Shown: positions 1 to 14,155, counted from the first letter of the stretch. The stretch: 64,000 bases of DNA from Nanobdellota archaeon (GCA_038046385.1 JBBSWH010000011.1:71815-135814); one strand, 5' to 3'. Numbers and translations are program-made. The notes: generated from the sequence alone by a model not told the origin.

Positions 1-2
1 AA

Positions 3-806
3 TATTCATTTATCATCTTTGTAGGGGTTATAGGGTTGGCATATGTATACGAAATTTTTGTCACAAACCCTGATTACAGCCTCATACTGCTTCATTCTGT
101 TAAGCCTATCTTGACAAAAGAAAGCGCCCTCATTGCAGTGGGAATAATCGGAGCGACAGTCATGCCGCACGCTTTGTTCGTGCATTCATGGCTTGTAAAG
201 AACAAGATGAAAAACCCGGCTTTCAAGAACAAGAAAAAAACCCTCAAGTATCATGTTTGGGACAATGTTCTGTCATTAATCATAGCCGGATTTATCAATG
301 CTGCAATAATAATAATGGCAGCAGCGGCATTCCACTCTTCAGGAATAGCTGTTACAACGCTTAATCAGGCATACACAACACTAATCCCGCTGTTTGGAAA
401 ATTCGCTGCATTGGCATTTGCGCTCGCGCTTTTGTCTGCAGGAATCTCTTCTTCAGTTACGGGCACCCTTGCAGGCCAGTCTGTCATGGACGGATTGACT
501 GGATTTAAAATTCCATTATGGGTCAGGAGAGTTATAACAAGAGTTATTAACGTGATTCCGGTTACAATAGCTATCCTCATGGGGATTGAGCCGCTAAAAA
601 TATTAATTCTTAGCCAGGTCGCATTAAGCCTGCTCATACCTCTTCCTTTGATACCTCTTATAATGTACACAGCCGATAAGAAGATTATGAAAGAGCTTGT
701 TAACAGAAAAATAACCACAATATTTGCAGTGATATTTGCTTTTGTTATACTCTGCTTTAATGTATACCTTCTTTATCAGGTGATATTCGGCGGGGCAGGA
801 TTTTAA
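3..806 (+). CDS. mntH: NRAMP-family divalent metal (Mn2+) transporter, 5'-truncated by the window edge
   Basis: GATVMPHALFVHS motif, SSSVTGTLAGQ and SQVALS NRAMP signatures, many TM helices; frame is open to the window start. Confidence 0.92.
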   Translation, partial: YSFIIFVGVIGLAYVYEIFVTNPDYSLILLHSVKPILTKESALIAVGIIGATVMPHALFVHSWLVKNKMKNPAFKNKKKTLKYHVWDNVLSLIIAGFINAAIIIMAAAAFHSSGIAVTTLNQAYTTLIPLFGKFAALAFALALLSAGISSSVTGTLAGQSVMDGLTGFKIPLWVRRVITRVINVIPVTIAILMGIEPLKILILSQVALSLLIPLPLIPLIMYTADKKIMKELVNRKITTIFAVIFAFVILCFNVYLLYQVIFGGAGF

Positions 807-808
807 AT

Positions 809-1474
809 TTACCTGCTTTTTGCAACTCCTATTTTCGGGCAATATTGCTTTATTGCGCATTTTGAACAGATTGGTGAATTTGTAAAGCAGACATTCTGCC
901 CGTGAAGAACAAACAAGTCATTTAAGTCTCCCCAGTATTTTTTTGGGATTGTTTTCATCAAATCATCCATTGACTGCTCTGCGTTCTTTGTTTTAATCCA
1001 TCCCAATCTGTTGCTTATGACATGGACGTGCACGTCAACTGGGATATAATCAGTTTTTTTATGCCCGTAAACCATTGTTATGGCGGCTGTTTTCTTTCCA
1101 ACACCTTTTAGCGTCATCAGTTCTTCAAATGTATCCGGCACTTTTCCGTTGTGTTTTTCAAGAATGTCCCTGCAGATCCCTTTGATTGTCTTTGATTTTG
1201 TTATGTAATAATTGCACGACCTGATTATTTTTTGAAATTTGTTCATCGGCATTTTTAGAATTTTTTTAGGAGTGTCCGCAGCTTCAAATAATTTTAAAGA
1301 AACCGGTCCTGTTGTCCTGTCCTGCGTCCTTAAGCTTAAAATGCATGAGATTAAAACCTTGAATGGGTCTTTTTGTATTTCCCCTATTTTTGAAACAACC
1401 GGATTCTCAAAATTCTTGACTTCTTTTTTCAGAAGCGATATGATTTTGGAAATGTTTTTTAGATGGTGTTTCAT
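809..1474 (-). CDS. nth: Endonuclease III (HhH-GPD glycosylase with 4Fe-4S cluster)
   Basis: LKGVGKKTA HhH, IPVDVHV catalytic Asp, C-x6-C-x2-C-x5-C cluster motif. Confidence 0.95.
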   Translation of the reverse strand: MKHHLKNISKIISLLKKEVKNFENPVVSKIGEIQKDPFKVLISCILSLRTQDRTTGPVSLKLFEAADTPKKILKMPMNKFQKIIRSCNYYITKSKTIKGICRDILEKHNGKVPDTFEELMTLKGVGKKTAAITMVYGHKKTDYIPVDVHVHVISNRLGWIKTKNAEQSMDDLMKTIPKKYWGDLNDLFVLHGQNVCFTNSPICSKCAIKQYCPKIGVAKSR

Positions 1475-2157
1475 TTCAAAATCCTCCCGTTCTTTCTGCT
1501 CCAGAGCAATAAATCCAGCTCGTCCATGTCAATCCCGATTTTCTTCGAGAAATCCTTATATTTTTGTTCAATTTCTAAATAGTTTTTAGAGGTTAATTTT
1601 ATGTTTTCATTCAAAACACCAAATTCACGCATAGAATTCATAATATGTTTATCTAAGATGGCATATCCTCTAAATCCTATATTTCTTAAGAAATGCGATG
1701 CTTCCTTCATCCCAAGGCCTTTTACATTAATAACAAAAAAGTTGCGCAGATCATTCTTGCTGTCTTTTAAGGAATCTATTTTTTTCCTCAATTCAAAGTT
1801 AATGAACTTTTTTAGATGTTCTCTAGTATAAACAATGTATTTTGGCCTTATTCTATTAAACCTATTCCCATCTAACTTCCGTGTCATATCGTATGTGCTT
1901 CCCTTCATCAGTACATTTCGCACTTTATCCACAGATTTTAACCCTTCTTCTGCGCTGTTGTTTGCTGTGAATATGCAAAATGCAAGTTCCTCGAAAATCC
2001 TTTCATTATCATTTTTGTCAGAAGGAAGAAGCTTCAGATTATTGTCAATGTAGTGCCACGAATAAGGCTCATTGAAGAATTTTTCAAACTGAGAAAGTCT
2101 TTCCCTTATCTCATTTTTTTTGCTATTATATTCTACCTTTAGTTGTGCTGTCCCCAT
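1471..2157 (-). CDS. ogg: 8-oxoguanine DNA glycosylase/AP lyase (Ogg2 type)
   Basis: FEELAFCIFTAN, VKGLGMKEASHFLRNIG, AILDKHI, ELDLLLW and a C-terminal ILK typical of Ogg2. Confidence 0.92.
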   Translation of the reverse strand: MGTAQLKVEYNSKKNEIRERLSQFEKFFNEPYSWHYIDNNLKLLPSDKNDNERIFEELAFCIFTANNSAEEGLKSVDKVRNVLMKGSTYDMTRKLDGNRFNRIRPKYIVYTREHLKKFINFELRKKIDSLKDSKNDLRNFFVINVKGLGMKEASHFLRNIGFRGYAILDKHIMNSMREFGVLNENIKLTSKNYLEIEQKYKDFSKKIGIDMDELDLLLWSRKNGRILK

Positions 2158-2341
2158 AACCTTGGTATTACTTAATGTTTTTTAAAGCTTGCCTTGGGTT
2201 TTAGAGGATGTATCTTGGCAAGCTTTAAACAACACTCGGAGATTATGCAGTTGATTTGATTTTTTTATCACCTCTTAATAAATTCTGGTGATTCCTATAT
2301 AAATATTTAATTGAAGAAATTATTCCTAAAAGAATAAATAT

Positions 2342-2842
2342 CTATTTCTTTTTCTTTCCTTTGCTCTTTTTTTCTTTTGTCCTTGAATGTGCAATCCAAA
2401 AATATACTGCGATGAGGCCGGAGTAATTAAGCAGCATGAACCACCAAGTCCCCCAGCTTATTCCGTCAAATCTATAATTTGCCAAAGGCCATAAGAAAGG
2501 CGTGGGAAAAAACTTAGTTGAATGTGTCGGAATGTCAATCAGTATGTGTATCGGCCATCCAAGCATTGGCCAGAACCATTTTTTTGTTATTAAAAATACA
2601 ATTAAGAAAACAACGGCAAAAACAATCAGGCTGTGCGTCATATTGTATGCAGAAAAAATCCAGCTTGGCAGCGATTCAAGCGCCGGTTTTCCCCTGTGAA
2701 GCGTTCCTGTTGCGATGCCAATCACAAAAAGAATGCCAAAAGACAGCAAATCCGGCAAAACCCCGAAAAATGCCCCAAGCCATGCGTATTTCTTTTTATT
2801 GAATACTGCATAAGCCCATAATCCGTGCGCTAAAGTGTCCAT
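2342..2842 (-). CDS. YdjM-like membrane-bound metal-dependent hydrolase
   Basis: MDTLAHG, LPDL, THS, HILIDIPTH, PFLWP motifs with TM segments. Confidence 0.75.
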   Translation of the reverse strand: MDTLAHGLWAYAVFNKKKYAWLGAFFGVLPDLLSFGILFVIGIATGTLHRGKPALESLPSWIFSAYNMTHSLIVFAVVFLIVFLITKKWFWPMLGWPIHILIDIPTHSTKFFPTPFLWPLANYRFDGISWGTWWFMLLNYSGLIAVYFWIAHSRTKEKKSKGKKKK

Positions 2843-2843
2843 T

Positions 2844-2948
2844 TTATTGTAAATTTAGTGTATTTAAATCTCACACTTCAGTGAGAAATTTACAATCTAG
2901 CAGACTCACTTATTAATTAATCGGTAGTGCGGTGAGTCTGCGTTATTT
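2844..2948 (-). repeat. Dispersed double-hairpin element, family B, copy 1
   Basis: On the minus strand AATAAC-GCAGACTCAC..GTGAGTCTGC then ATTGTAAATT..AATTTACAATAA; same stems at 6413-6527 and 11020-11172. Confidence 0.85.
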
Positions 2949-3503
2949 TTTTAATGTTGATTTTGATATTAAATCAAGAAGTAATGGGAACTTTGTAAAT
3001 CCTGCTTCTTTGTTTAGGTGGCCCCCTTGAGGTATTATTCTTAATTCTGCTCCAACATATTTCGCAAGCTCTTTGCTTACATCGACTGTGATGTACTCAT
3101 CATTGTCAGAAGCAATAACAAAGAATTTTTTGCAGCCATTCTTTATTTTTTTCCAGTCGAATTTTTTGTCTGTAAAAGTTTCCAGTATTTTGTCATAAGG
3201 GCTTCCAAGCTGCTTGTGGAACCCTGCAACAAGAAATACGGAATTTACTTTTTTATCGGACTGTTCAAGATAATTAAGAATAAATGCGGCCCCGAGGCTG
3301 TGTCCAATCAAAACAGTTTCTTCATTAATTTTGTCTTCATGTTTTTTGATTATTCTTAGCCAGCTTTCAAGTGTCTGGTTTAGGGGAGTAGGAAACTTAG
3401 GGACAATAGTGTCATATCCCTTTGTTTCCATCTTTTTCTTAAGCCATGGAAACCAGTTTCCATCAGGACTGCTGTAGACTCCGTGTATTATTATGAAATT
3501 CAT
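2943..3503 (-). CDS. RBBP9/YdeN-family alpha/beta serine hydrolase
   Basis: IIHG, NWFPWL, GHSLG nucleophile elbow, SDND, GGHLN. Confidence 0.92.
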   Translation of the reverse strand: MNFIIIHGVYSSPDGNWFPWLKKKMETKGYDTIVPKFPTPLNQTLESWLRIIKKHEDKINEETVLIGHSLGAAFILNYLEQSDKKVNSVFLVAGFHKQLGSPYDKILETFTDKKFDWKKIKNGCKKFFVIASDNDEYITVDVSKELAKYVGAELRIIPQGGHLNKEAGFTKFPLLLDLISKSTLKK

Positions 3504-4015
3504 TTTATTTTTGCGTATAAGTAAGCATCAATATATTTGCCGTCTTTGCTGCAATGTTTTCTCAACAGCCCTTCTTTTTTGTATCCGTTTTTTACCAGCA
3601 CCCTGGAAGATTTTTTGTTGAATGAAAACACAGTTGCATAAATTCTGATTAATTTTAAATTATTTAAGCCATAATCTGTCACAAGATTTACCGCTTTTGT
3701 TATTATCCCTTTATTCCAATATTTTTTCCCCAGCCAGTATCCCATTTCTGCTTTATGGCATTCAATATGGTTGAATCCTATTCCCCCAACTACTTTTCCA
3801 TTTATGTCGATTGCGAAATTAATCTCTTTTTTATTTTTTAATTTTGCTAATTTTAAATTATAATTTATCCACCATTTAGCGTCTTTTTTGGTAAATGGAT
3901 GTGGAATCCTGCACGTATGCCTGTAAATATCAAAATCATTGACATTTTCTTTTAAAGATTCTTCATCGCCTTTTTTATAAAGCCTGATTACAAACCCTTT
4001 TCCTTTCAGTTTCAT
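3500..4015 (-). CDS. RimJ/RimL-type GNAT N-acetyltransferase
   Basis: AEMGYWLGKKYWNKG and NKKSSRVLVKNGYKKEG motifs. Confidence 0.9.
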   Translation of the reverse strand: MKLKGKGFVIRLYKKGDEESLKENVNDFDIYRHTCRIPHPFTKKDAKWWINYNLKLAKLKNKKEINFAIDINGKVVGGIGFNHIECHKAEMGYWLGKKYWNKGIITKAVNLVTDYGLNNLKLIRIYATVFSFNKKSSRVLVKNGYKKEGLLRKHCSKDGKYIDAYLYAKIK

Positions 4016-5784
4016 TTTCTTCTGATAAAATTGCTTAATGTAATCTGCTCATCTTTGTTTGCGCTTAAGTAAATGACCTGGCCTTCCTTGCTGCCCGACC
4101 TGTAAATAGAGATGCCTTTGCATCCAAGCTCATGCGCCATCATGAATATTTTTTCAATATCTTCAACTTTGGCATCTTTTGGCAGCGTAACTGTTTTTGA
4201 AATTCCATTGTCTACATACGTTTGGAATGCAGCCTGCATTTTTACGTGCCATTCAGCTTCAATGTCGCTTCCAATAACAAAAATGTTTCTTATTTCTTCC
4301 GGAATCTCCTTTATATTTTTTATAGACCCTTCCCTGTTTATTTTTTCAATTATTTCTTCTGTATAAATGCCGGAATCAGCAAGCTTTTCCTTCAGCTGCC
4401 TGTTGAAATAAATCAGGGTCTTTCCTTCTGCCGTGCTCCTGTTATAGCTTAATGCAAACAGCGGCTCGATTCCGCTTGACACATCTGCAATAATGCTTAT
4501 AGTGCCGGTTGGCGCGATTGTTGTTCTTGTTGCATTCCTTAATACAGCGTGATTTCCCTTAAAATGCCTGCTTTTTTTATTGTAAACGCTTTGATTCCAT
4601 GCAGGAAAAGCGCCCCTTTGCCCAGCAATAGCTACAGAAGAATTATCTGCTTCATTTGAAATGAATTTCATAACCTTTTCAGCAGTTTTTAATGCTTCAT
4701 CTGAATCATAAGCGATGTTCATCTTGATAAGCATGTCTGCAAACCCCATCACTCCGAGGCCAATTTTTCTGTTTTGCTCTACGAATTTTCTGTTTGCCTC
4801 AAGAGGATAATTGCACATGTCAATAACATTATCAAGGAAATGCACAGCAGAACGGACAACTCCCTTTAGCCTTTCAAAGTCTACAGTCCCATCTTTGACA
4901 AAGTTGCTTAAATTAATGCTTCCCAGGTTGCAGGATTCATAAGGCAATAATGGCTGTTCTCCGCATGAGTCTGTTGATTCAATTGTTCCAAGTGCTGGCG
5001 TTGGATTGCTTTTGTTGATTGTATCAATAAAAATAACTCCGGGGTCTCCGTTAAGCCATGCATGTTCGCATAATATCCTGAAAATCCTGCTAGCGCTTTC
5101 TTTTTTTACAAACTTTTTGGTTCTGTAATTTATTAGATTGTAATCTTTGTCTTTGGCGACTGCATTAAGGAATTTGTCAGTGACTGCCAATGAAATGTTG
5201 AAATTTGTAAGTGTGTTCTCGCGGCTTTTTATTGTTATGAATTCCTCAACATCAGGATGATCCACATTCAGGATGCCCATGTTTGCTCCCCTTAAAGTGC
5301 CTCCCAATTTAATCTGGCCGGTTGCTGCGTCAAATACTTTCATGAATGATACTGGACCGGATGTGAATCCTGCGCTTTCAATTATGTCGCCTTTTGGCCT
5401 TAAGTTAGAGAAGTTAAATCCGGTTCCTGCGCCTGTTTTGTGGATTAAAGCAGAATCATGCAGCGTCATGAATATAGAGCTTATGTCATCTTCTATCGGA
5501 AGCACAAAGCACCCGGCCAGCTGCTGCAGTTTTCTGCCTGCATTTATCAGGGTCGGGGAATTAGGAAGAAAATCAAGCGAAGCCATGAGGTTGTAGAACT
5601 CTTCTTCAGCCCTCTTTATGTTTTTTTTCTGGGATTTGTATTTTGCATCAGCCGATGCTACGTTTTTTGCAACCCTCCTGAACAGTTTTTCAGGCGTTTC
5701 AATTATCCTTCCCTTATCATCGCGCTTCAGGTATCTCTGCTCAAGAATCATCAATGCATTCTTCGATAAATGTGAGTGCTTCAT
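4012..5784 (-). CDS. nrdJ: Divergent class II (adenosylcobalamin-dependent) ribonucleotide reductase paralog; no ATP cone, no C-terminal Cys pair
   Basis: [60 protein letters not shown]; substitutions TDSCGE and KLGGTLRG; ends [11 protein letters not shown]. Confidence 0.88.
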
Positions 5785-5785
5785 T

Positions 5786-6172
5786 TTATTTTACAAATTC
5801 TACCCCTTCTTTAGTTTTAAATTTTGAATCTCCGGTTAGAAAATGCATTTCCCTCTCCAAAGAAAATGCATATCCGACACAATCAATGTAGCTTAGCTTT
5901 TCTTTTTTATTTGCGAGTTTTATTTCCATGCCTATTTTTATTGCAGTATGAGTTAAATCCACACAAAAACCCAGCCAATAGTCAAAATAACGGTTTGCCT
6001 TTTCTTTTCCATAAACCCTGAGAAGGTGGTAGTACAATTCCATCAAATTAAATTCAGAAGTTACCAATGCAGAATTTTCATATTTTTTGTAATTTTCATT
6101 GCCGCCAATTATCTCTATCAAGGCGTATGTATCACAAAAAAAGATTTCAGTGCTCATCATATCCCTTATCAA
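5786..6172 (-). CDS. vapC: PIN-domain (VapC) toxin; true start may be 6157-6160
   Basis: CDTYALIE, NLME, LSYIDC, LTGD acidic PIN tetrad; overlaps the upstream antitoxin. Confidence 0.88.
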   Translation of the reverse strand: MIRDMMSTEIFFCDTYALIEIIGGNENYKKYENSALVTSEFNLMELYYHLLRVYGKEKANRYFDYWLGFCVDLTHTAIKIGMEIKLANKKEKLSYIDCVGYAFSLEREMHFLTGDSKFKTKEGVEFVK

Positions 6173-6371
6173 TGTCTTCCATCGCCTTTTGGGTAGACAT
6201 TTTAAGCTTCAATGTTCCAAAGATGCTGTCAAAACTTTTTTTTGAGTCTTTAAAAACCAAAACCTTTATTTTTTCATTTGGTTTTATTTTTTCATCCTTA
6301 ATTATATCTGCCGGTATGGTTATACCTAATGAATTTCCCCATCTTTTTGGTATTGCTTCAAATTGCTCCAT
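6147..6371 (-). CDS. vapB: AbrB/MazE-type antitoxin
   Basis: KRWGNSLGITIPADII swapped-hairpin motif; GGTGA RBS before the ATG at 6371. Confidence 0.88.
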   Translation of the reverse strand: MEQFEAIPKRWGNSLGITIPADIIKDEKIKPNEKIKVLVFKDSKKSFDSIFGTLKLKMSTQKAMEDIDKGYDEH

Positions 6372-6412
6372 TTTAATCACCACTTTTATGTATAATTTAA
6401 TTATATATAAAC

Positions 6413-6527
6413 TTATTGTAAATTCGTGGGTTTAATGCCTATACTTCAGCACGAATTTACAATCCCGCAGACTCGCCTATTAATTACGATGCGCAATAAT
6501 GCGCCGAGTGGCGAGTCTGCGTTATTT
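6413..6527 (-). repeat. Dispersed double-hairpin element, family B, copy 2
   Basis: Same stems as copy 1 with a compensatory change (CTCGC/GCGAG vs CTCAC/GTGAG). Confidence 0.85.
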
Positions 6528-6571
6528 ATTTTTGCAATAAATTTATATAATTTAGAATAAGAGACAATATT

Positions 6572-6850
6572 ATGGAGCATCTATCCATTAAAGACATTCA
6601 TGACAGGCTGGAGCAGCTTAATGAATGGGAACTTACAGGAGATGAGCTTGTAAAGGAATTTTCGTTTGACAGCTTCAAGGAAGCAATGAATTTTGCGCAT
6701 CAGGTCGGAGAAGAAGCTGAAAGGCAGAAGCATTATCCTGTAATCATCATAAGGGGAACCCTTGTTACAATAACATTGTCAACTCCCGCAGCAAACGGAG
6801 TCACGCACGATGATTTTAAGCTCGCAAGGGCAATAGAGCAGATGGTTTAA
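6572..6850 (+). CDS. phhB: Pterin-4-alpha-carbinolamine dehydratase-like protein
   Basis: W..L.KEF.F..F..AM.F, HYP, GVT..DF.LA..I pattern; catalytic His set is incomplete. Confidence 0.8.
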   Translation: MEHLSIKDIHDRLEQLNEWELTGDELVKEFSFDSFKEAMNFAHQVGEEAERQKHYPVIIIRGTLVTITLSTPAANGVTHDDFKLARAIEQMV

Positions 6851-6914
6851 TTATTTTCAAGTTCCTTATTTCATTGAAGCAGATTAAGGGCGAGTTTGTG
6901 AACTTGTAGTCAAA

Positions 6915-7115
6915 TTATTTTCTTTTTTTGTATTTTTTTCTATAATATTCTGTTTTTAGTATGTGTAAATACTCCATAATCCATCTTACTGGCCAATATT
7001 CTTTATGACCTGGTTTTGGCCAATTACCCATTCCATCAAAAGCAGGATGAGAATCTAAATAATTTTCAATTTTGTCCGTTTTCTTTTTCAGTTCTTTAAT
7101 GGATAGTTTACTCAT
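6915..7115 (-). CDS. Small hypothetical protein
   Basis: 66-aa ORF, co-oriented and closely packed with its neighbours. Confidence 0.5.
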   Translation of the reverse strand: MSKLSIKELKKKTDKIENYLDSHPAFDGMGNWPKPGHKEYWPVRWIMEYLHILKTEYYRKKYKKRK

Positions 7116-7126
7116 AGAACAAAAAA

Positions 7127-7432
7127 TTAATTTAATGCGTCTTCAATTTCTTTTTGCCTAGTAGGGAACTTTTCGATTAAAAAACGAACTAATTCTTCTG
7201 GATATCCCACCAAACGTTTAAATTCAATAGTATTTATTTTTAATTCCCTAGTGCAAGCGGCTCGTATAGTACTCTCCTTCCTACCATTTTCTTGAGCAAT
7301 TTTGTATAACGCTACATCGAAAGAATTATTATCCTTAATCATTAGTTTTGATACACCTATAACATGCTTAAATTGTTCATTTGGATTATTTCTCTCTTCA
7401 ATTTTTTTGAGCAATTTATCCCAATCTTTCAT
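7127..7432 (-). CDS. Hypothetical protein (possibly DNA-binding)
   Basis: 101-aa ORF directly after btuR, very AT-rich codons. Confidence 0.55.
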   Translation of the reverse strand: MKDWDKLLKKIEERNNPNEQFKHVIGVSKLMIKDNNSFDVALYKIAQENGRKESTIRAACTRELKINTIEFKRLVGYPEELVRFLIEKFPTRQKEIEDALN

Positions 7433-7441
7433 AGTCTTAAT

Positions 7442-8050
7442 CTAGTATTCAATTCCTTTTCTCGCGATAATCCCCTTCTGCCAGGGGTGCTTTACGCTTT
7501 GGACAACATTGACATAATCTGCCAATTCTATTATCTCCTGCGGAGCGTCTCTTCCTGTAAGCACAAGTTCAACTTTGCCGTGGTTTTTCAGAATATCAAG
7601 AACCTCATTTATCGGAATAAGGTTTTTTTCCAGAACGCAGTTTATCTCATCCATTATGACCATGTCATATTCTCCGCTTTTAATTGTTTTTTTCACATGC
7701 TCCCAGCCCTGCATCGCTGCATCTTTTTCCTTTATGTCCGGCTGAAATGTAAAAGTTCCTGTTTTGTCGGAGAATTCCTTAAAGTGTTTTTGCTTGTCTT
7801 TCAAGGCATCAACGCCAAACTGCTCTATTTCAAATCCCAATTTCTTTGCGCTGTAAATTTCTCCGGTAAATCCGCTCTTAAGAAATTGTATCATGCAAAC
7901 CTGAAGATTATTTCCAACAGCCCTTAATGCCAGTCCCAATGAAGAAGTTGTCTTTCCCTTTCCGTCTCCTGTTATGACATGAACAAGGCCAAGGTGATCC
8001 TTGCTGTTGTCCCCCTTTACTTTGATTGGATTCTTTATTTTCGTGAGCAT
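7442..8050 (-). CDS. btuR: Cob(I)alamin adenosyltransferase (CobA/CobO/BtuR)
   Basis: TGDGKGKTT P-loop, QFLK, DEIN, LTGR, KHP, ARKGIEY C-terminus. Confidence 0.95.
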   Translation of the reverse strand: MLTKIKNPIKVKGDNSKDHLGLVHVITGDGKGKTTSSLGLALRAVGNNLQVCMIQFLKSGFTGEIYSAKKLGFEIEQFGVDALKDKQKHFKEFSDKTGTFTFQPDIKEKDAAMQGWEHVKKTIKSGEYDMVIMDEINCVLEKNLIPINEVLDILKNHGKVELVLTGRDAPQEIIELADYVNVVQSVKHPWQKGIIARKGIEY

Positions 8051-8177
8051 TTTAGTATAGGTAACATTTTTGGCTTTAAATATTTATCATTAGTGGATTA
8101 CTTATCAGTATTGATTAAAATTATATGTAAATTTTTTAATGTTATTAGTTAATGAGTTTTATTATTGAAATTTAATC

Positions 8178-8248
8178 CCGTTCGGCTTCGCCTCACAAAA
8201 TATAGTGCTCGGGTTTCGCTCGGTTGCCAGTCGCTCAACCCTCGCCAA
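8178..8248. repeat. GC-rich REP-like hairpin cluster downstream of nrdJ
   Basis: GGC-TTC-GCC (GGCGAAGCC on the minus strand) and GGTTG..CAACC stems in an AT-rich spacer. Confidence 0.5.
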
Positions 8249-8293
8249 TCTATTGTTATAAAATAAAAATTAATTAAAAAGAAAAAAACAAAA

Positions 8294-10834
8294 CTACATG
8301 CAAAGGCCCCATCCGCATCCGGGACAGTGCAGGCATCCTTCTTTTATCTCAACTTTTGCGCCGCATTCAGGGCAGTTTTTGATTGTAGTCTTTGTCATTG
8401 GAGCAGATACTTTGTCTGCAAACACAAGGTTTCCGGATTCCTTAACAGCAGCCTGCTGTACTGGAATTGCTTGTGGAGCTGGCTTTGCTTCTTTCTCCTC
8501 CCTTGCTTTTGGCGCAACCAATACCTGATCCTTGATGCTGGAATCCCTGAACACTGTGACATCTTTGCATCCAATCTTGTAAGCCAGTATGAAACTTTGC
8601 CTCATATCTTCAAGAGTTGCATCTGCAGGGAAATTATTTGTCTTTGAGATGCTTGAGTCTACCCATCTTTGGAAAGATGCCAATGCCATTATATGCTCTT
8701 CAGGAGTTATGTCCATTGCAGTCACAAGCGCTTTTTTTATGTGCTCTGGCACATAATCGAGGCTTTGTATGCTTCCCTTGTTTTGGTTAATATCTTCCAT
8801 TACTTTATCGTTCAGCAAGCCTTCTTCTCTTAAGACCTTTTCTCCTGCAGGGTCAATGTAGAAGAATTTTCCAACAGCAACGTTTTTTTCATAAACAAGG
8901 CTGTAGACCGGTTCCATTCCAGATGAACAGCCAGCTATCATTGAGATGCTTCCGGTTGGCGCAATTATTGTAGTGTATCCATTTCTTATGCCATACTTCT
9001 TCATGTCGTTGCTTATCTTTTCCCAGTTTAATTTTGCATTCCCTCTGTATGGGCCGCTTATTGGATGCCTGCCCTGCTTGTAGAAGCTCTTGTCATAGTA
9101 AGGCAAGTTCCCTCTTGCTTTCGCAAGCTCTATGCTTTCAACCTTGCTCCAGTAAGCAACAAACTCCATAAGCTGTTCCATAAAATTCCTTCCTTCCTCT
9201 GAATTGAACGGAAGCTTTAGTTCATAAAGCAGATTTGCAACTCCCATAACTCCAAGGCCAACTTTCCTTGTCGAAAGGCTCATCTCTTCTATAGCTTTCA
9301 ATGGGAAATTGTTAACATCAATCACATTATCAAGGAACCTTGTTGAGCTCATTACAACTTCTTTCAATGCATCCCAGTCAACTGTCGTTTGGCCATGCTC
9401 ATCCATTCTTGCAAATGCCCATACATTGATTGATCCAAGGTTGCATGGCTCATTCGGATACAAAAGAACTTCTCCGCAAGGGTTTGTTGTTACGATTGGC
9501 CCAAGATGCTCAAAGAACGGGTTGTATTCGTTTACTTTATCGTAGAAAATAACTCCCGGTTCAGCAGATTCCCATGCCTGATAAACAATTTTGTCAAACA
9601 ATACTCTTGGGTTAACTGTCTTTACAATCTTGCCGTCTTTCGGATTAACCAATGGGTACGGCTCGTTCTTTTCATAGTGTTCCCAGAAATCTGGCATTAT
9701 CAAGACGCTTATGTTAAAGTTCCTCAATGCTTTGTTTCCGTCTTTTGCTGTTATGAACTTCTCAATGTCAGGATGATTTGAGTTAAGGATGCCCATATTG
9801 GCGCCTCTTCTTATACCCCCTTGTTTGATGACTTCTGTCATTGTATCAAACAGCCTCATGAAGCTTAATGGGCCTGATGCTGTTCCGCCTGTTGAAGAAA
9901 CAAAATCTCCCTCTGGCCTTAATTTTGAAAAATTGTAGCCCATTCCTCCGCCAGCTTTGAATACTATTGCTGTATTCTTTAGAGTCTCCATTATGCCATC
10001 TATACTATCTGGCACATCAAGAACAAAGCATGCGCTTCCCATTCCCAATGGATTTCCAAAATTTGCAATTGCAGGAGTATTCGGCATGAATAGCTTCTGT
10101 GTCATAAGATTGTACAGTTCATCCAGATTTTTTTCATAATTGTCAAAGTCGCCTTTCTTAATCATGTCAAAAAATTTGCTCCACGTTACTTTCATCTGCT
10201 TGTTTCTGTTAAAGCGGTCATACATCCTCTTCACAGCTTCAAGATGGTATCTGTTCAGCTTGTACTTTCCAACACCATACTGGTTTTCATGCACAGCTGG
10301 CCTAAACTCTTCAACAATGTTGGTCTGCTGCTGGCCGCTTATGTCAAAAACTTTTGAATCATAGAATAAATCAGGAAGTGCAGCATGCACAGCTACCCTT
10401 GTGAAAAGCTGTTTTGGAGTTTCAATCAGCTTGCCTGTTGCATCCCTTCTCAAGTATCTTGCTTTTAGGACTCTTAGAGCATTAACATCAAACTTCTTGT
10501 CAACTTCATCCACTTCTTCCTTTTCAAGCACAATCTGCTTTTCTTTCCTAACAGCAGCTCTCTGTTCCCTATAAAGTATGAATGCTTTTGCTGTTGTTGC
10601 ATGCCCTTCTTCCATAAGCACTTTTTCAACAGTGTCCTGGATTTCTTCAACAGAAGGGGTTGTTTTTAATGCTTCCAGCCTTTGCATGACTATATTACTA
10701 AGCTGCTGCGCTAATTTTCGGTCTTTTCCGCCAACTGACTGGGCCGCTTTCCATATTACATTTGTAATTTTTGACTGATTGAATGAAACTACGCTACCGT
10801 CCCTTTTCTTTATCCTAGAAATTTTTGATTCCAT
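8294..10834 (-). CDS. nrdJ: Class II ribonucleotide reductase with N-terminal ATP cone and C-terminal Zn-ribbon/Cys tail (ORF track start 10882)
   Basis: IKKRDG ATP cone, SACFV, KQGGIRRGANM, TNPCGE, CNLGS, IAPTGSIS, CPECG..CPGCGWGLC; GGAGGG RBS before the ATG at 10834. Confidence 0.96.
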   Translation of the reverse strand: MESKISRIKKRDGSVVSFNQSKITNVIWKAAQSVGGKDRKLAQQLSNIVMQRLEALKTTPSVEEIQDTVEKVLMEEGHATTAKAFILYREQRAAVRKEKQIVLEKEEVDEVDKKFDVNALRVLKARYLRRDATGKLIETPKQLFTRVAVHAALPDLFYDSKVFDISGQQQTNIVEEFRPAVHENQYGVGKYKLNRYHLEAVKRMYDRFNRNKQMKVTWSKFFDMIKKGDFDNYEKNLDELYNLMTQKLFMPNTPAIANFGNPLGMGSACFVLDVPDSIDGIMETLKNTAIVFKAGGGMGYNFSKLRPEGDFVSSTGGTASGPLSFMRLFDTMTEVIKQGGIRRGANMGILNSNHPDIEKFITAKDGNKALRNFNISVLIMPDFWEHYEKNEPYPLVNPKDGKIVKTVNPRVLFDKIVYQAWESAEPGVIFYDKVNEYNPFFEHLGPIVTTNPCGEVLLYPNEPCNLGSINVWAFARMDEHGQTTVDWDALKEVVMSSTRFLDNVIDVNNFPLKAIEEMSLSTRKVGLGVMGVANLLYELKLPFNSEEGRNFMEQLMEFVAYWSKVESIELAKARGNLPYYDKSFYKQGRHPISGPYRGNAKLNWEKISNDMKKYGIRNGYTTIIAPTGSISMIAGCSSGMEPVYSLVYEKNVAVGKFFYIDPAGEKVLREEGLLNDKVMEDINQNKGSIQSLDYVPEHIKKALVTAMDITPEEHIMALASFQRWVDSSISKTNNFPADATLEDMRQSFILAYKIGCKDVTVFRDSSIKDQVLVAPKAREEKEAKPAPQAIPVQQAAVKESGNLVFADKVSAPMTKTTIKNCPECGAKVEIKEGCLHCPGCGWGLCM

Positions 10835-10895
10835 ATTTATCTGACCCTCCTTCGGCAAAATCTTATTTTCGCTTATTTTCACTACTTTATCGAAA

Positions 10896-10943
10896 CCACA
10901 ATAGGTAGTATGTATGATGACGTCTGCATACTACAGGTAGTGG
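10896..10943. promoter_or_regulatory. Tandem NrdR-box-like operators
   Basis: ccACAATAggTAGTat (10896) and atACTAcAggTAGTGg (10928), starts 32 bp apart, between the TATA (10961-10970, minus) and nrdJ. Confidence 0.7.
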
Positions 10944-11019
10944 TTTTTTAACGCTGACCTAATATTTAAAGATTGTGTTTTTATTGTAACAATTGACTTA
11001 AAAATTTTATATAAATTAT

Positions 11020-11172
11020 AAATAACGCAGACTTGTTACTCTATATACATTTACAACAAGTCTGCGGGATTGTAAATTTATCGTGGAACAAAGTTCCGCG
11101 GATATCCGCTGAGCTTTGCTCAGCGAATACATGCAAAATCATTGGGTTTTTATACCCATGAATTTACAATAA
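11020..11172 (+). repeat. Dispersed double-hairpin element, family B, copy 3 (inverted, with extra nested hairpins)
   Basis: AAATAACGCAGACTTGTT..AACAAGTCTGCGGG-ATTGTAAATT..AATTTACAATAA. Confidence 0.85.
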
Positions 11173-11262
11173 ACTTCATAATACTTTTAAATCAAGAATT
11201 TGTAGTTGCTTTCCCTTTAAAAATCTTAGGCAAGCATGTCCAGTGGTTTTTATATGTAGCCT

Positions 11263-11384
11263 CAAAGTTAGCATCAATATGCGAAGGCATTTTATTTATC
11301 CAGCTAATATGGCAGGGGGAAGCCCCTTACGGGGATGCCATATAATCTAAACCCTGTAGACAGCCTGAGCCGATGCTAACTTTG
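11263..11384 (+). ncRNA. Candidate structured ncRNA/DNA element, family A, divergent copy
   Basis: 13-bp terminal IR CAAAGTTAGCATC/GATGCTAACTTTG, GC-GA-AGGC/GCCT-GA-GC, inner ATGGCA/TGCCAT stem with a purine bulge and a CCCC/GGGG hairpin. Confidence 0.6.
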
Positions 11385-11460
11385 GCAAATCCATGCCAAA
11401 CGTTTATAAACCGATAAAAATACCAAAATACGTTACAAAATTCTTATTTTGTGCTTGACA

Positions 11461-12000
11461 ATGAGAACAATAAACGCAAAAGGACATGAATTTATATCGC
11501 ATCCGGTTAGGGACTCCTATGACAGAAGAGCGCAGCAGTTCAAAAACAAGATAATTTTGGCATTGGGAAAAATTGGATTGACAGAAGATGATGTTGAAAT
11601 AGATCTTGAGCCTTCGGCTGTTAAATCAGCGCCTGCATCTGCAGCGTGGTACATGGAAGGGCATTATATGCATTACAGCCACAATTCACCAAGAAAATAC
11701 GTTGAAAACCTTTCTGTTGTGCTAAAAGTGATTGAGCTTGAAGTTGATGCACTTATTCATGGGCGCAAGACAATACGGGATTTCATCACAGAATTCTCTG
11801 AAGACAAAGAAGTCGAAAAGCTAAGGAAAGAAGCGCGCGAGGTGCTTGGGATTGGCGAAGATGTGCATGACCTTAACTTAATTGATGCAAACTACAAAGC
11901 GCTTGCCAAGAAACACCATCCTGACATGCCTGATGGAGATATTGTAAAGTTCAAAGAAATCAACCACGCGCATAAGATACTAAAGAGAGAGTTGCAGTAA
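11461..12000 (+). CDS. Protein with C-terminal DnaJ (J) domain
   Basis: AREVLGI..YKALAKKHHPD..FKEINHAH; ATG at 11461. Confidence 0.85.
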   Translation: MRTINAKGHEFISHPVRDSYDRRAQQFKNKIILALGKIGLTEDDVEIDLEPSAVKSAPASAAWYMEGHYMHYSHNSPRKYVENLSVVLKVIELEVDALIHGRKTIRDFITEFSEDKEVEKLRKEAREVLGIGEDVHDLNLIDANYKALAKKHHPDMPDGDIVKFKEINHAHKILKRELQ

Positions 12001-12145
12001 CTGTATTTTTCTGGATTGAGTTTAACATAGTGGGTGATTGTTCGTTTTTGTAAAGGCTGGCTTTTGTATTGTAGTATCTTTAGAGTAGTAAACAACCAAA
12101 ACGTTTAAATACTTGCCATTTACTCTATATTTTAGGTGAATTGAT

Positions 12146-12502
12146 ATGGACGAAAATTTATCTGTTGAACAAAGGATAGCAAGATTCTTAGAAGCAAACG
12201 ATATTACTATTATTCCCGTAAATGGGGGCGATGGAATAGAAATATTAGAGTTTGTACAACATATGACTGGCGGGACGACAAGAGAATTAGGTGGAATATT
12301 CTATAATCGTGACGTAGGAATGACACAAGCAGCCGATGTTCCTCGTCTAGGGCAGTGCCTTCAACTCCCAGAATTTGTTGCTGAAGTTAGAAGGCCAATG
12401 TCACAACTTTTAGCACAAGTCAAGGGTGACTTTTATGCTGATCAATTAGGACCAATACATGATGCTTGTGACAAAGTAGAAGCAAAGTATGCAGGAAGAT
12501 AA
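12146..12502 (+). CDS. Orphan hypothetical protein
   Basis: 118-aa ORF with TTTAAATA box and AGGTGA RBS upstream. Confidence 0.7.
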   Translation: MDENLSVEQRIARFLEANDITIIPVNGGDGIEILEFVQHMTGGTTRELGGIFYNRDVGMTQAADVPRLGQCLQLPEFVAEVRRPMSQLLAQVKGDFYADQLGPIHDACDKVEAKYAGR

Positions 12503-12619
12503 GGCACCTGTTTTTTCTTATTATTTTCAAATTTATATGAAATTCTGCTTTATTTTAATTCAGCTGCCAATTACAATTAACATTTTTTTGATGCAGTTAA
12601 ATCAGCCTAACTATTAGAA

Positions 12620-14155
12620 TCACTCAACAATCTTCCCTAACTTGCTTAACTCCTCCCCCTCAAACATCCTTATAATCACGTCTTTCAGTTCAGTAATCTT
12701 AACGCGAGCTTGTTCTGTTGTATCTCTAGACCTTATCGTAACAGTCTCATCTTCCAAACCTTCAAAATCTATCGTAATACAGGCATAAGCTCCAATCTCA
12801 TCCATTCTTGCGTACCTTCTTCCGATTGAGCCGGAAACGTCAAAAGAGCAAGTCCATTCTTTCTTGAGCATGTTATAGACTTCTCTTGCCTTGTCAACAA
12901 CTTCTTTCTTGTTAGACACAAGTGGAAACACTCCTAATTTGACAGGCGCTAATTTAGGATGAAGTTTTAAAACAACATTCTCCCTTGACTTGTCAAAATG
13001 ATAAGCGTCAAACAAGAACACAAGGAAAGCCCTTTCAACACCCATCGAAGGCTCGCAGATTACATGCGGAATTATCTTTTTCTTTGTTTCCTCATCAAAT
13101 ATTGAAAGATCAGTTTTTGAATGCTCAATATGCTGCTTCAAATCAAAATCCGTTCTATTACTTAACCCTTGTAATTCTTTCCACCCAAAAGGAAATTCGT
13201 ATTCCAAATCCCAAGTATCAAGAGCATAATGCGATAATTCATCATGAACATGCTGCCTTATCCTGAAATGATCCGGTTTGACTCCAAGATTTACAAACCA
13301 CTGGTGCATTGATGCCAGCCAGTAAGCGTGCCACTTTGTTTTTATTATCTTCTTAGACAAGCATTCTTTGATTGACATTTTTTCATGTTTCTTGCCATGA
13401 CCCTGCATCTCTGCAGAATAAACATTCATTTCATGGTCAATTACATCATCAATGAAAGCGCATTCGTTTTGCTTTTCCGGATGAACAAAATATTCTATCT
13501 CCATCTGCTCAAATTCTCTCATTCTAAAGAGAAAATCTCTAGGAGAAATTTCATTTCTGAAGGATTTTCCGATTTGCGCAATTCCAAACGGAAGCTTCAT
13601 CCGTGCATTTTCCTGCACCAGTTTGAAATTTGCAAAAATAACCTGTGCAGTTTCAGGACGAAGATAAGCAACAGAACCGGAAACAGGACCGACATTCGTG
13701 GAGAACATCAAATTGAACATCTTTGGCTCTCCAAGTTCTGCATTGCCGCACTTTGTACACCTTAATTTGTGCTCTTTTATTTTTGAATCCATATCTGAAA
13801 TAGACATTCCTGCTGTCTCTATCTTCAGCTTGTCCTCTATCAAAGTGTCTGCCCTAAAACGTGCATTGCACTTCTTGCAGTCAACCAGCACATCTGTGAA
13901 TCCATCAACGTGACCGGAAGCTTTCCACACAGTCGGATGGTTTACAATACTTCCGTCAATTCCGGCAATATCTTCCCTTTCCTGAACAAAAATCTTCCAC
14001 CACTGCTGCTTGATGTTGTTTTTTAATTCAACGCCCAGATGACCAAAATCATAGAATCCCGATATGCCGCCGTAAATCTCAGAGTTTGGATACACAAATC
14101 CCTTTCTCTTGCAAAAAACAGCCATATCATCAATTGTAAGCTTTTGCTTTTCCAT
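12620..14155 (-). CDS. glyS: Glycine--tRNA ligase (alpha2, archaeal/eukaryotic type)
   Basis: LRPETAQ, FRNEISPR, FEQMEIEYF, IEPSxG-like motif, SIGRRYARMDEIG. Confidence 0.97.
   Translation of the reverse strand: MEKQKLTIDDMAVFCKRKGFVYPNSEIYGGISGFYDFGHLGVELKNNIKQQWWKIFVQEREDIAGIDGSIVNHPTVWKASGHVDGFTDVLVDCKKCNARFRADTLIEDKLKIETAGMSISDMDSKIKEHKLRCTKCGNAELGEPKMFNLMFSTNVGPVSGSVAYLRPETAQVIFANFKLVQENARMKLPFGIAQIGKSFRNEISPRDFLFRMREFEQMEIEYFVHPEKQNECAFIDDVIDHEMNVYSAEMQGHGKKHEKMSIKECLSKKIIKTKWHAYWLASMHQWFVNLGVKPDHFRIRQHVHDELSHYALDTWDLEYEFPFGWKELQGLSNRTDFDLKQHIEHSKTDLSIFDEETKKKIIPHVICEPSMGVERAFLVFLFDAYHFDKSRENVVLKLHPKLAPVKLGVFPLVSNKKEVVDKAREVYNMLKKEWTCSFDVSGSIGRRYARMDEIGAYACITIDFEGLEDETVTIRSRDTTEQARVKITELKDVIIRMFEGEELSKLGKIVE

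Follow-up and report, generated by a model that had tools for sequence, protein, structure and literature searches.

Why should a family of tiny groundwater archaea equipped with a normal B12-dependent ribonucleotide reductase (RNR), the class II enzyme NrdJ, keep a second, conserved copy of it? De novo synthesis of DNA precursors depends on RNR alone, and the further copy has altered active-site residues. The case comes from a window of 64,000 nucleotides from a Nanobdellota archaeon (GCA_038046385.1, JBBSWH010000011.1:71815-135814), by which we mean the whole stretch of DNA analysed; positions are counted from its first letter. On the minus strand, at 4012..5784 (stop codon at 4012-4014), lies the open reading frame (ORF) that an initial annotation, made from the sequence alone, had placed there. 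It encodes a class II RNR homologue of 590 amino acids (P0001, hereafter the variant). Judging from its sequence and that of its relatives, the variant is most likely an accessory, adenosylcobalamin (AdoCbl)-dependent, nucleotide-directed radical enzyme, docked on the sliding clamp PCNA and with a rewired supply of electrons or protons.

By family model and predicted fold, the variant is an NrdJ. Pfam places PF00317 and then PF02867 on it (PF02867 at E 1.2e-127), and the NrdJ_Z model TIGR02504 scores 694.5 bits, above its cut-off of 399.95. The nearest equivalog model, NF006417, reaches 874.8, under its cut-off of 961; model positions 9-582 of 759 are covered, and positions 583-759 (about 175) have no counterpart in the protein. 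The NrdJ of T. maritima (Tm) matches by sequence at E 4.8e-123 (1XJE alignment). The AF2 model of the variant (pLDDT 81.4, pTM 0.86) has the ten-stranded RNR barrel with its finger loop, and its top matches in the PDB are T. maritima NrdJ chains (TM 0.85-0.87, E 9e-51, 39% identity). With this fold (TM 0.86), this level of identity and the same PF00317-PF02867 order, the variant resembles T. maritima NrdJ (1XJE, 3O0O) and the NF006417/PRK08665 type. Model confidence falls below a pLDDT of 50 at loop 2 (residues 158-166), as expected of a flexible loop.

What is missing lies at the two ends. No ATP cone is found by Pfam, and a hidden one is impossible because only two more codons are open 5' of the ATG (the open frame comes to 592 amino acids). 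At the other end, the protein stops 25-30 residues past the barrel, has no cysteine after residue 555 and closes with a run of 12 protein letters (not shown). Both absences had been claimed in the initial annotation and are borne out by the translation and Pfam. A split gene, that is, a decoupled NrdJb supplying the missing C-terminal domain, was considered and rejected, the overlapping downstream ORF at 3500-4015 being a GNAT acetyltransferase. The idea of a recent duplicate of the adjoining NrdJ also falls: the variant is 36% identical to that neighbour versus 51-58% to its nearest canonical relatives, which by sequence places it in an NrdJ lineage other than that of the neighbouring copy. 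Public records of its clade carry the label ‘adenosylcobalamin-dependent ribonucleoside-diphosphate reductase’, which may be functionally wrong.

One change is in the finger loop. Here the variant reads T271-D272-S273-C274-G275-E276 (4957..4974, minus strand) in place of the canonical TNPCGE. In the alignment to 1XJE, C274 is the thiyl-radical cysteine (Tm Cys322) and Glu276 is Tm Glu324, whereas D272 stands in place of Tm Asn320 and S273 in place of Tm Pro321. Asn437 and Glu441 (Tm Asn320 and Glu324) hold the ribose 3'-OH (Zimanyi et al. 2016, PMC4728125). NxCxE is a motif of classes O (null), I and II alike, with a finger loop said to be ‘closely coupled to biochemical mechanism’ and argued to track the reduction mechanism (Burnim et al. 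2022, PMC9669993); NPCxE is found in 3,175 of 3,347 class II sequences (PMC9669993). The variant, with D-S-C-G-E, lacks NxCxE and keeps its Cys and Glu.

Loop 2, which reads the substrate in other RNRs, is changed as well. Alignment to T. maritima NrdJ and comparison within the clade give K159-L-G-G-T-L-R-G166 (5287..5310, minus strand), in which L160 replaces Tm Gln203 (E. coli Gln294) and L164 replaces Tm Arg207 (E. coli Arg298). Arg298 touches the base and the beta-phosphate, and the E. coli Arg298Ala enzyme is essentially inactive, whereas Gln294Ala keeps purine reduction and loses pyrimidine reduction (PMC4728125). By alignment, the two reducing cysteines are present: Cys92 on beta-A (5509..5511, minus strand; Tm Cys134) and Cys285 on beta-F (4930..4932, minus strand; Tm Cys333). 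Ser76 corresponds to Tm Ser91, which contacts the phosphates, and Asp99, Lys116 and Arg129 correspond to Tm Asp141, Lys158 and Arg171, which bind the effector (PMC4728125 Table 4). These equivalences, like the retained APTG loop, are read from alignment only, and each of the four residues is at least 90% conserved, if not invariant, across the clade.

Set against T. maritima and NF006417-type enzymes, the variant shares the radical Cys, the Glu, the Cys pair, the phosphate Ser, the APTG loop and the specificity Asp/Lys/Arg. It differs in Asn320 to Asp, Pro321 to Ser, Gln203 to Leu, Arg207 to Leu (in its subclade) and SKT[VI]N to SKTVT. Like NF006417-type NrdJ, it has an adenosyltransferase gene adjoining; unlike it, it has neither an ATP cone nor a TSCPD/zinc-finger Cys-rich domain (CRD), and its C-terminus resembles a PCNA-interacting protein (PIP) box. 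All the motifs of the initial annotation are present in the translation (LAGCFV with C92, KLGGTLRG at 159-166, CNLGS with C285, and ISKTVT), which also reads a stretch of 14 protein letters (not shown) and, around residues 271-276, one of 22 (not shown). Some of the contrasts drawn from them need trimming. The loop described as shortened is indeed shorter, but by one residue only; ISKTNN is what the neighbouring canonical enzyme reads, while the closest canonical relatives read VSKT[VI]N; and the GCFV context belongs to this gene, most clade members having ACFV.

These features recur together. Among the 120 best homologues (query included; 59-100% identical, the named ones labelled Woesearchaeota or Nanoarchaeota), TDSCGE is found in 119 and the tail Q-x-x-L-x-x-[FW]-h also in 119, the sole tail miss being a truncated entry of 523 amino acids. 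All six residues of TDSCGE are invariant in an alignment of 60 clade sequences. SKTVT is present in 110/120, and loop 2 begins K-[LIM] in all members read, so the loop-2 Gln position is Leu, Ile or Met in every one of them. The loop-2 Arg is retained only in a distant subclade with KLGGLRRG; in the variant's own subclade Arg207 has become Leu. Only about ten positions, Q160L, N272D and P273S included, distinguish the 60 clade members from 25 canonical sequences. The latter had been pre-filtered on NPCGE, so for positions 272 and 273 the evidence is that of two other surveys. TDSCGE occurs in none of the 150 best 50%-identity cluster representatives (one, P0167, reads TDSCGD), and all 56 non-clade loci with a readable ORF combine TNPCGE with a Cys-rich or Cys-bearing C-terminus. 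On these sequence counts, the recurrence of the variant's features is far beyond chance.

The clade is also under selection. A quick maximum-likelihood search on 70 rows, with the motif columns included, recovers it as monophyletic (SH-aLRT 97), with a stem of 0.26 and short tips. It sits inside the NF006417-type NrdJ radiation, where a polytomy below SH-aLRT 80-84 singles out no one canonical lineage as parent. Pairwise dN of the variant is 0.16-0.34, and a rough omega of 0.06-0.10 for the clade compares with 0.045-0.08 for canonical NrdJ in the same genome pairs; since dS is saturated (at least 1.9, or not computable in 4/8 pairs), omega is to be taken as a rough, upper-level figure. A decaying paralogue, the outcome that would have undone the initial annotation, is ruled out by the clade-wide conservation together with this canonical-like omega. 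We have hardly any doubt that the clade is real and selected.

Within the clade, the cysteines do not all behave alike. The beta-A position is Cys in 117 of 120 members, Ser in 2 and unread in 1, and at the beta-F position 108 members have Cys, 11 have Ala and 1 has Val. One reducing cysteine has thus been lost in 14/120 members, and both are kept in 106/120. A divergent sister of the clade, P0167 (a public protein of 615 amino acids from a metagenome-assembled genome, MAG), goes further: Ser and Ala replace both reducing cysteines, loop 2 is KKGGIRRG and the ending, QRLLFDFY, is a textbook PIP box. Its branch consists of this one MAG protein, no close relative of which was found in 5.8 billion clustered proteins, the next best being 49% identical.

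In the genomes surveyed, the variant is confined to one family and always accompanies the normal enzyme. A pattern of 10 protein letters (not shown) was matched in 7 of 401 genomes across the order (6/400 without G345, an unpublished genome). All seven lie in the window's own family, namely G000, the genome of the window, and six of the seven other family members, in five genera, and there was no match among 393 genomes in 135 other families. In a 41-genome sample including G000, the variant or a fragment of it is present in 21 of the 25 genomes of the genus. A canonical-type RNR match was found in all 21 of these and in all five further clade-bearing genomes, while G004 (92% complete) and G013 have the canonical enzyme only. 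Because a canonical-type RNR accompanies the variant throughout, the variant is most likely accessory, standing beside canonical NrdJ and not in its place. In G000 (85% complete) no class III RNR (NrdD) was found; thioredoxins are encoded. DNA of the window was found in groundwater metagenome runs of several studies, among which no RNA run is listed.

In the window, the canonical partner (P0002, 862 amino acids) lies at 8294..10882 on the minus strand. Pfam and equivalog models give it an ATP cone (PF03477, residues 23-109) and a C-terminal CRD, and it reads KQGGIRRG, TNPCGE and ISKTNN. Related genomes keep the two genes in synteny, with a conserved order of canonical nrdJ, cobA, an opposite-strand pterin dehydratase gene, the variant, variable genes, ogg and nth. 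The cobA gene (7442..8050, minus strand; PF02572, E 6.7e-56) encodes a cobA/cobO-type ATP:corrinoid adenosyltransferase, which makes AdoCbl. It is upstream of the variant in 14/16 clade loci and in L015-L018 it directly adjoins or overlaps the open frame of the variant. The gene likewise accompanies canonical NrdJ in other archaea.

The canonical gene shows some variation of its own. In many relatives (L006, L009, L011, L012 and L018; G013, G015, G016, G018, G020 and G021) the canonical NrdJ is 1012-1831 amino acids long, with the alignment broken at conserved motifs, presumably by inteins, up to several per gene. A single frameshift interrupts it near residue 600 in G024 (L120, G024:C18), and another interrupts the variant near residue 325 in G016 (L121, G016:C51). 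Neither stretch contains an N and both come from draft MAGs; the frameshifts could be assembly errors or real pseudogenes, and we take them as uninformative.

The second distinguishing feature is the C-terminal tail. Residues 564-590 (4015..4095, minus strand) are predicted to be disordered (AF2 pLDDT <50) and contain the PIP-box-like motif Q580-I-T-L-S-N-F-I587 (4024..4047, minus strand), defined by the clade motif statistics and followed by RRK. Across 116 scored tails the pattern is D-E-Q-I-T-L-x-x-[F/W]-[L/F/V/I/M]-[R/K]. The Q and the L at +3 are present in all 116, position +6 is F in 77 or W in 39, +7 is aliphatic or Phe in all 116 and +8 is K or R in 102, whereas +4 and +5 vary freely. 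This fits the PIP motif as given by MacNeill (2016, PMC4929162), QXXhXXaa, save for its last position, which in many tails is aliphatic. In the genome, 7 of 1519 ORFs of at least 100 amino acids have the motif within their last 16 residues, and the four of these with a Pfam assignment are FEN1, PolD-DP2, NreA and the variant; PolD, Fen1 and NreA are named as PIP-motif partners of PCNA (PMC4929162).

Structure prediction also directs the tail to the clamp. Co-folding of variant residues 546-590 (60-sequence alignment) with the genome's single PCNA (G000 contig 6, 58328-59071; 23-sequence alignment) put the tail onto the canonical PIP site with an ipSAE of 0.74, compared with 0.00 for the best of three controls. 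The three runs gave 0.71, 0.74 and 0.76, with at least 80% contact agreement and a partner pLDDT of at least 44. Of 157 solved pairs, 116 come up to the 0.74 mark, as do 2 of 215 mismatched ones; with the self-supplied alignments used here, this calibration holds only roughly. In the co-fold, PCNA residues 39, 42-46, 122-126, 223-224 and 240-247 contact tail residues 576-584 and 586-588; the tail is thus predicted to dock in the inter-domain-loop/hydrophobic pocket and along the C-terminal strand. The variant probably binds PCNA, as this model suggests. From the earlier claim of a clamp-tethered enzyme, what stands is a conserved, selected, PIP-like tail that the co-fold directs to the clamp; actual binding goes beyond the prediction.

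Archaeal PIP partners such as Fen1, PolD DP2, NreA, NucS, RFC and RNase H2 (PMC4929162) offer the closest comparison for this tail. The variant is like them in its extreme C-terminal QxxLxx[FW]h, in the disordered linker before the motif and in the basic residues after it, and the genome's own FEN1, PolD-DP2 and NreA end alike. It is unlike them in being an enzyme of nucleotide metabolism, while all the partners listed in that review act on DNA; the word ‘reductase’ is absent from the review (PMC4929162). A connection between dNTP supply and the clamp through a disordered PCNA-binding motif is known from S. pombe Spd1 (PMC10939359). There, however, the motif is on a small RNR inhibitor and not on a homologue of the RNR catalytic protein, and the two proteins share no homology. 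No literature description of this clade, of an archaeal RNR with a PIP box or of the Asn437-to-Asp mutant N437D was found, most subscription journals lying outside the coverage of the search.

Taken together, we hold it slightly better than even that the variant belongs to a conserved branch of dimeric class II (AdoCbl) RNR, confined to one family, that is accessory, docked on the clamp and rewired in its reductive half. The RNR fold, radical Cys274, Glu276, the contacts to the phosphates of the nucleoside diphosphate (NDP), the dNTP specificity site and the place behind cobA are all retained. With these, the enzyme would bind NDPs under dNTP control and start radical chemistry at C3'. It would be biased towards purines, because the pyrimidine-reading Gln of loop 2 is Leu. 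The reductive half would be rewired: the 3'-OH ligand has gone from Asn to Asp (NxCxE to DSCGE), the Cys-rich recycling domain is gone and one of the two reducing cysteines may be dispensable in part of the clade. If so, electrons would not arrive by the usual route from thioredoxin to C-terminal cysteines. The disordered peptide DEQITLxx[FW]h[KR] would serve as a PIP box and tether the enzyme to PCNA; loaded clamps at replication and repair sites could then fix where it acts, or switch its activity on. Gating by the clamp might in this way replace the lost control by the ATP cone.

The CRD offers a measure of what has been given up. It is present in approximately 70% of non-monomeric NrdJ and absent from approximately 30% (Loderer et al. 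2017, PMC5704485). Turnover with tris(2-carboxyethyl)phosphine depends on it, while the truncated enzyme works with dithiothreitol only, and reduction by the CRD across subunits has been demonstrated (PMC5704485). Given the lack of C-terminal Cys, the changed residue two places before the radical cysteine (-2), the losses of beta-F or beta-A Cys and the state of P0167, we read the clade as having a relaxed need for the disulfide route and a continuing need for the radical cysteine. That the variant is still, in net terms, a ribonucleotide reductase, using another reductant or the tail of canonical NrdJ in trans, we put a little short of even; radical chemistry other than ribonucleotide reduction we consider less likely than not.

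A partial parallel exists in class III. In the formate-dependent NrdD enzymes the beta-F Cys is dispensable, and only the beta-A Cys is highly conserved in that class (PMC9669993); in the variant's clade, too, it is mainly the beta-F Cys that has gone. There too the residue at -2 before the radical Cys enters the reductant chemistry (Met in MGCR, PMC9669993), and it is the Asn at -2 that has changed in the variant. NrdD differs in using a glycyl radical and not AdoCbl, in its finger-loop sequence and in its lineage, and formate use by the variant would be pure conjecture.

Several points weigh against the clamp-docked, rewired enzyme and should be taken together. In the tail, position +7, the second ‘aromatic’ of QxxhxxAA, is aliphatic in 87 of the 116 tails and Phe in 29 (the genome's NreA likewise ends F-L). 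Of the seven ORFs with the tail motif genome-wide, three have no Pfam family, and motif density alone would give about 2.9. The good co-fold score may reflect likeness to solved PCNA-PIP complexes in the PDB and not this particular pair. In the active site, the equivalent of Arg298 is Leu, so by analogy NDP turnover may be absent unless the adjoining Arg165 substitutes for it. The two reducing cysteines kept in 106/120 members fit ordinary disulfide chemistry. The supposed purine bias is taken from a single E. coli mutant, Gln294Ala, and may not transfer. A second NrdJ without a CRD beside a CRD-bearing copy is already known from Frankia and some Alphaproteobacteria (PMC5704485). Finally, PCNA binding by the variant and its chemistry are predictions only.

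Even so, the locus bears on how RNRs are understood. NxCxE has been treated as universal for classes I and II, and here an archaeal family keeps, under strong selection, a homologue that breaks it. The variant amounts to a natural experiment on the separable parts of the RNR mechanism (shuttle domain dropped, reducing Cys losable, radical Cys and B12 supply kept), and could uncover a reductant route or a reaction that is new. If PCNA binding is true, deoxynucleotide chemistry and the sliding clamp would be directly and physically linked on the catalytic protein itself, which bears on the long-standing question of whether precursor synthesis is coupled to the replisome.

Among other explanations, the one that survives best is itself rather unlikely. 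The variant could be a new RNR-derived AdoCbl enzyme that performs only the dehydratase-like first half of the reaction on purine NDPs, reductant-free and docked on or gated by the clamp. That is, it would abstract the 3'-H, eliminate the 2'-OH and return the hydrogen without two-electron reduction, much like a diol dehydratase, and release a 3'-keto-2'-deoxynucleotide or its breakdown to free base and pyrophosphate. The altered residue is the 3'-OH ligand (Tm Asn320; PMC4728125), the reductant-shuttle domain is lost in the entire clade, and reducing cysteines have been lost (in 14/120 members, and both in P0167) while the radical Cys is invariant. Against this, 106/120 members, the variant included, have both reducing cysteines, and no downstream enzyme is evident among the conserved neighbours. 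To our knowledge, no enzyme performs such a reaction, and the product would be unstable and potentially toxic. The basis is analogy, together with the E. coli N437D enzyme, which is reported to be inactive in reduction and yet to form a substrate-derived radical. If true, this reading would give nucleotide metabolism its first enzyme with a bona fide PIP box, and the class I/II RNR scaffold its first natural change of chemistry.

Quite unlikely, in our view, is an ordinary second NrdJ, streamlined by the loss of CRD and ATP cone, that makes dNDPs. Re-reduction would come from a small thiol or redoxin or from the neighbour's CRD, the substitutions would be fine-tuning and the tail would have no clamp function. 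Much of the variant agrees with this: the radical Cys, the Glu, both reducing Cys and the phosphate and effector sites are in place, the TIGR02504 cut-off is exceeded and the genome encodes thioredoxins. Copies without a CRD beside CRD-bearing ones and reduction across subunits are known (PMC5704485), and where a class II C-terminus has no zinc finger, it also lacks any Cys in 26% of cases (PMC9669993). The Frankia and alphaproteobacterial NrdJd proteins are the nearest such case, lacking the CRD and occurring only beside a CRD-bearing NrdJ; they differ as bacterial copies from bacteria without PCNA and are compared by description only, and the accessible text of the source reports neither active-site changes nor a clamp tail in them (PMC5704485). 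What an ordinary NrdJ does not account for is DSCGE, which breaks the NxCxE of classes O (null), I and II and is in none of the 150 cluster representatives or the 56 readable non-clade loci. Both loop-2 residues mutagenised in E. coli (Gln294 and Arg298) are Leu, and reducing Cys have been lost in 14/120 members and in P0167 (both). In addition, the tail is conserved exactly at the PIP consensus positions and variable between them, and the same motif otherwise marks FEN1, PolD and NreA in the genome.

Less probable still is a pseudoenzyme, that is, a nucleotide-sensing adaptor without turnover that would bind dNTPs, NDPs and PCNA and might, for instance, signal the state of the pools at the fork or bring in canonical NrdJ. 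Effector and substrate sites that are kept while catalytic helper residues have changed, a canonical RNR that is always alongside and the PIP-like tail would all suit such a role. It sits badly with T271-E276 invariant in 60/60 aligned sequences, TDSCGE in 119/120, the close linkage to cobA and selection as strong as on the canonical enzyme: a protein that only binds needs neither a radical cysteine nor a supply of AdoCbl.

Barely credible is an option that the initial annotation had entertained, namely that the enzyme, sitting on PCNA, works on nucleic-acid ends or on damaged nucleotides in DNA; the PIP-like tail and the downstream, same-strand ogg and nth could be cited for it. Against it, the NDP-phosphate contacts (Ser76 and the APTG loop, buried) and the residues of the allosteric dNTP site vary little or not at all, the fold predicted for the variant is a closed RNR barrel like that of T. 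maritima NrdJ, and ogg is also linked to canonical NrdJ.

The genes in question are ogg (1471..2157, minus strand; PF22175) and nth (809..1474, minus strand; PF00730 and PF00633), base-excision glycosylase genes downstream of the variant. The ogg gene is downstream in 8/16 clade loci, most of the remaining loci ending before that point. A special link of the variant to ogg and nth is not upheld, since two of the 64 non-clade loci (L036 and L070) show nrdJ-cobA-ogg with a canonical NrdJ.

The genes closest to the variant are less constant. Directly behind it is the GNAT gene (Acetyltransf_3, RimJ/RimL-like; 3500..4015, minus strand), whose ATG overlaps the variant's TGA (ATGA, 4012-4015). A GNAT gene is directly behind the variant in L006, L009, L012 and L025 as well, further downstream in L013 and not found in L015-L018. 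The tight ATGA junction recurs in L006, L012 and L025, and the two genes may be translationally coupled, to judge from the overlap. On the other side, a PIN-domain gene (PF01850; 5786..6172, minus strand) ends 2 nucleotides short of the variant's start codon. None of the 16 related clade loci has an equivalent gene, so that here it is probably a recent insertion into the interval that separates cobA from the variant.

Between cobA and the variant there is also a pterin-4a-carbinolamine dehydratase gene (PF01329; 6572..6850, plus strand). It is present in 9/16 clade loci (L004, L006-L010, L012, L013 and L025) and was not found in L014-L018; it has no obvious tie to RNR or B12. A scan for promoters and terminators used bacterial consensus sequences and is uninformative for an archaeon. 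An Rfam search of positions 1-14000 gave nothing above the gathering score, only one weak C/D-box-like match (E 0.096), and no match for an intergenic repeat of about 65 nucleotides. This repeat is found at 2887-2952, behind a serine-hydrolase gene, and at 6454-6531, between the PIN and pterin dehydratase genes, with a weaker copy at 9619-9651. Identity between the copies is 88% in one block and 77% in the block adjoining it, and the first copy contains a 10-bp stem followed by a run of T.

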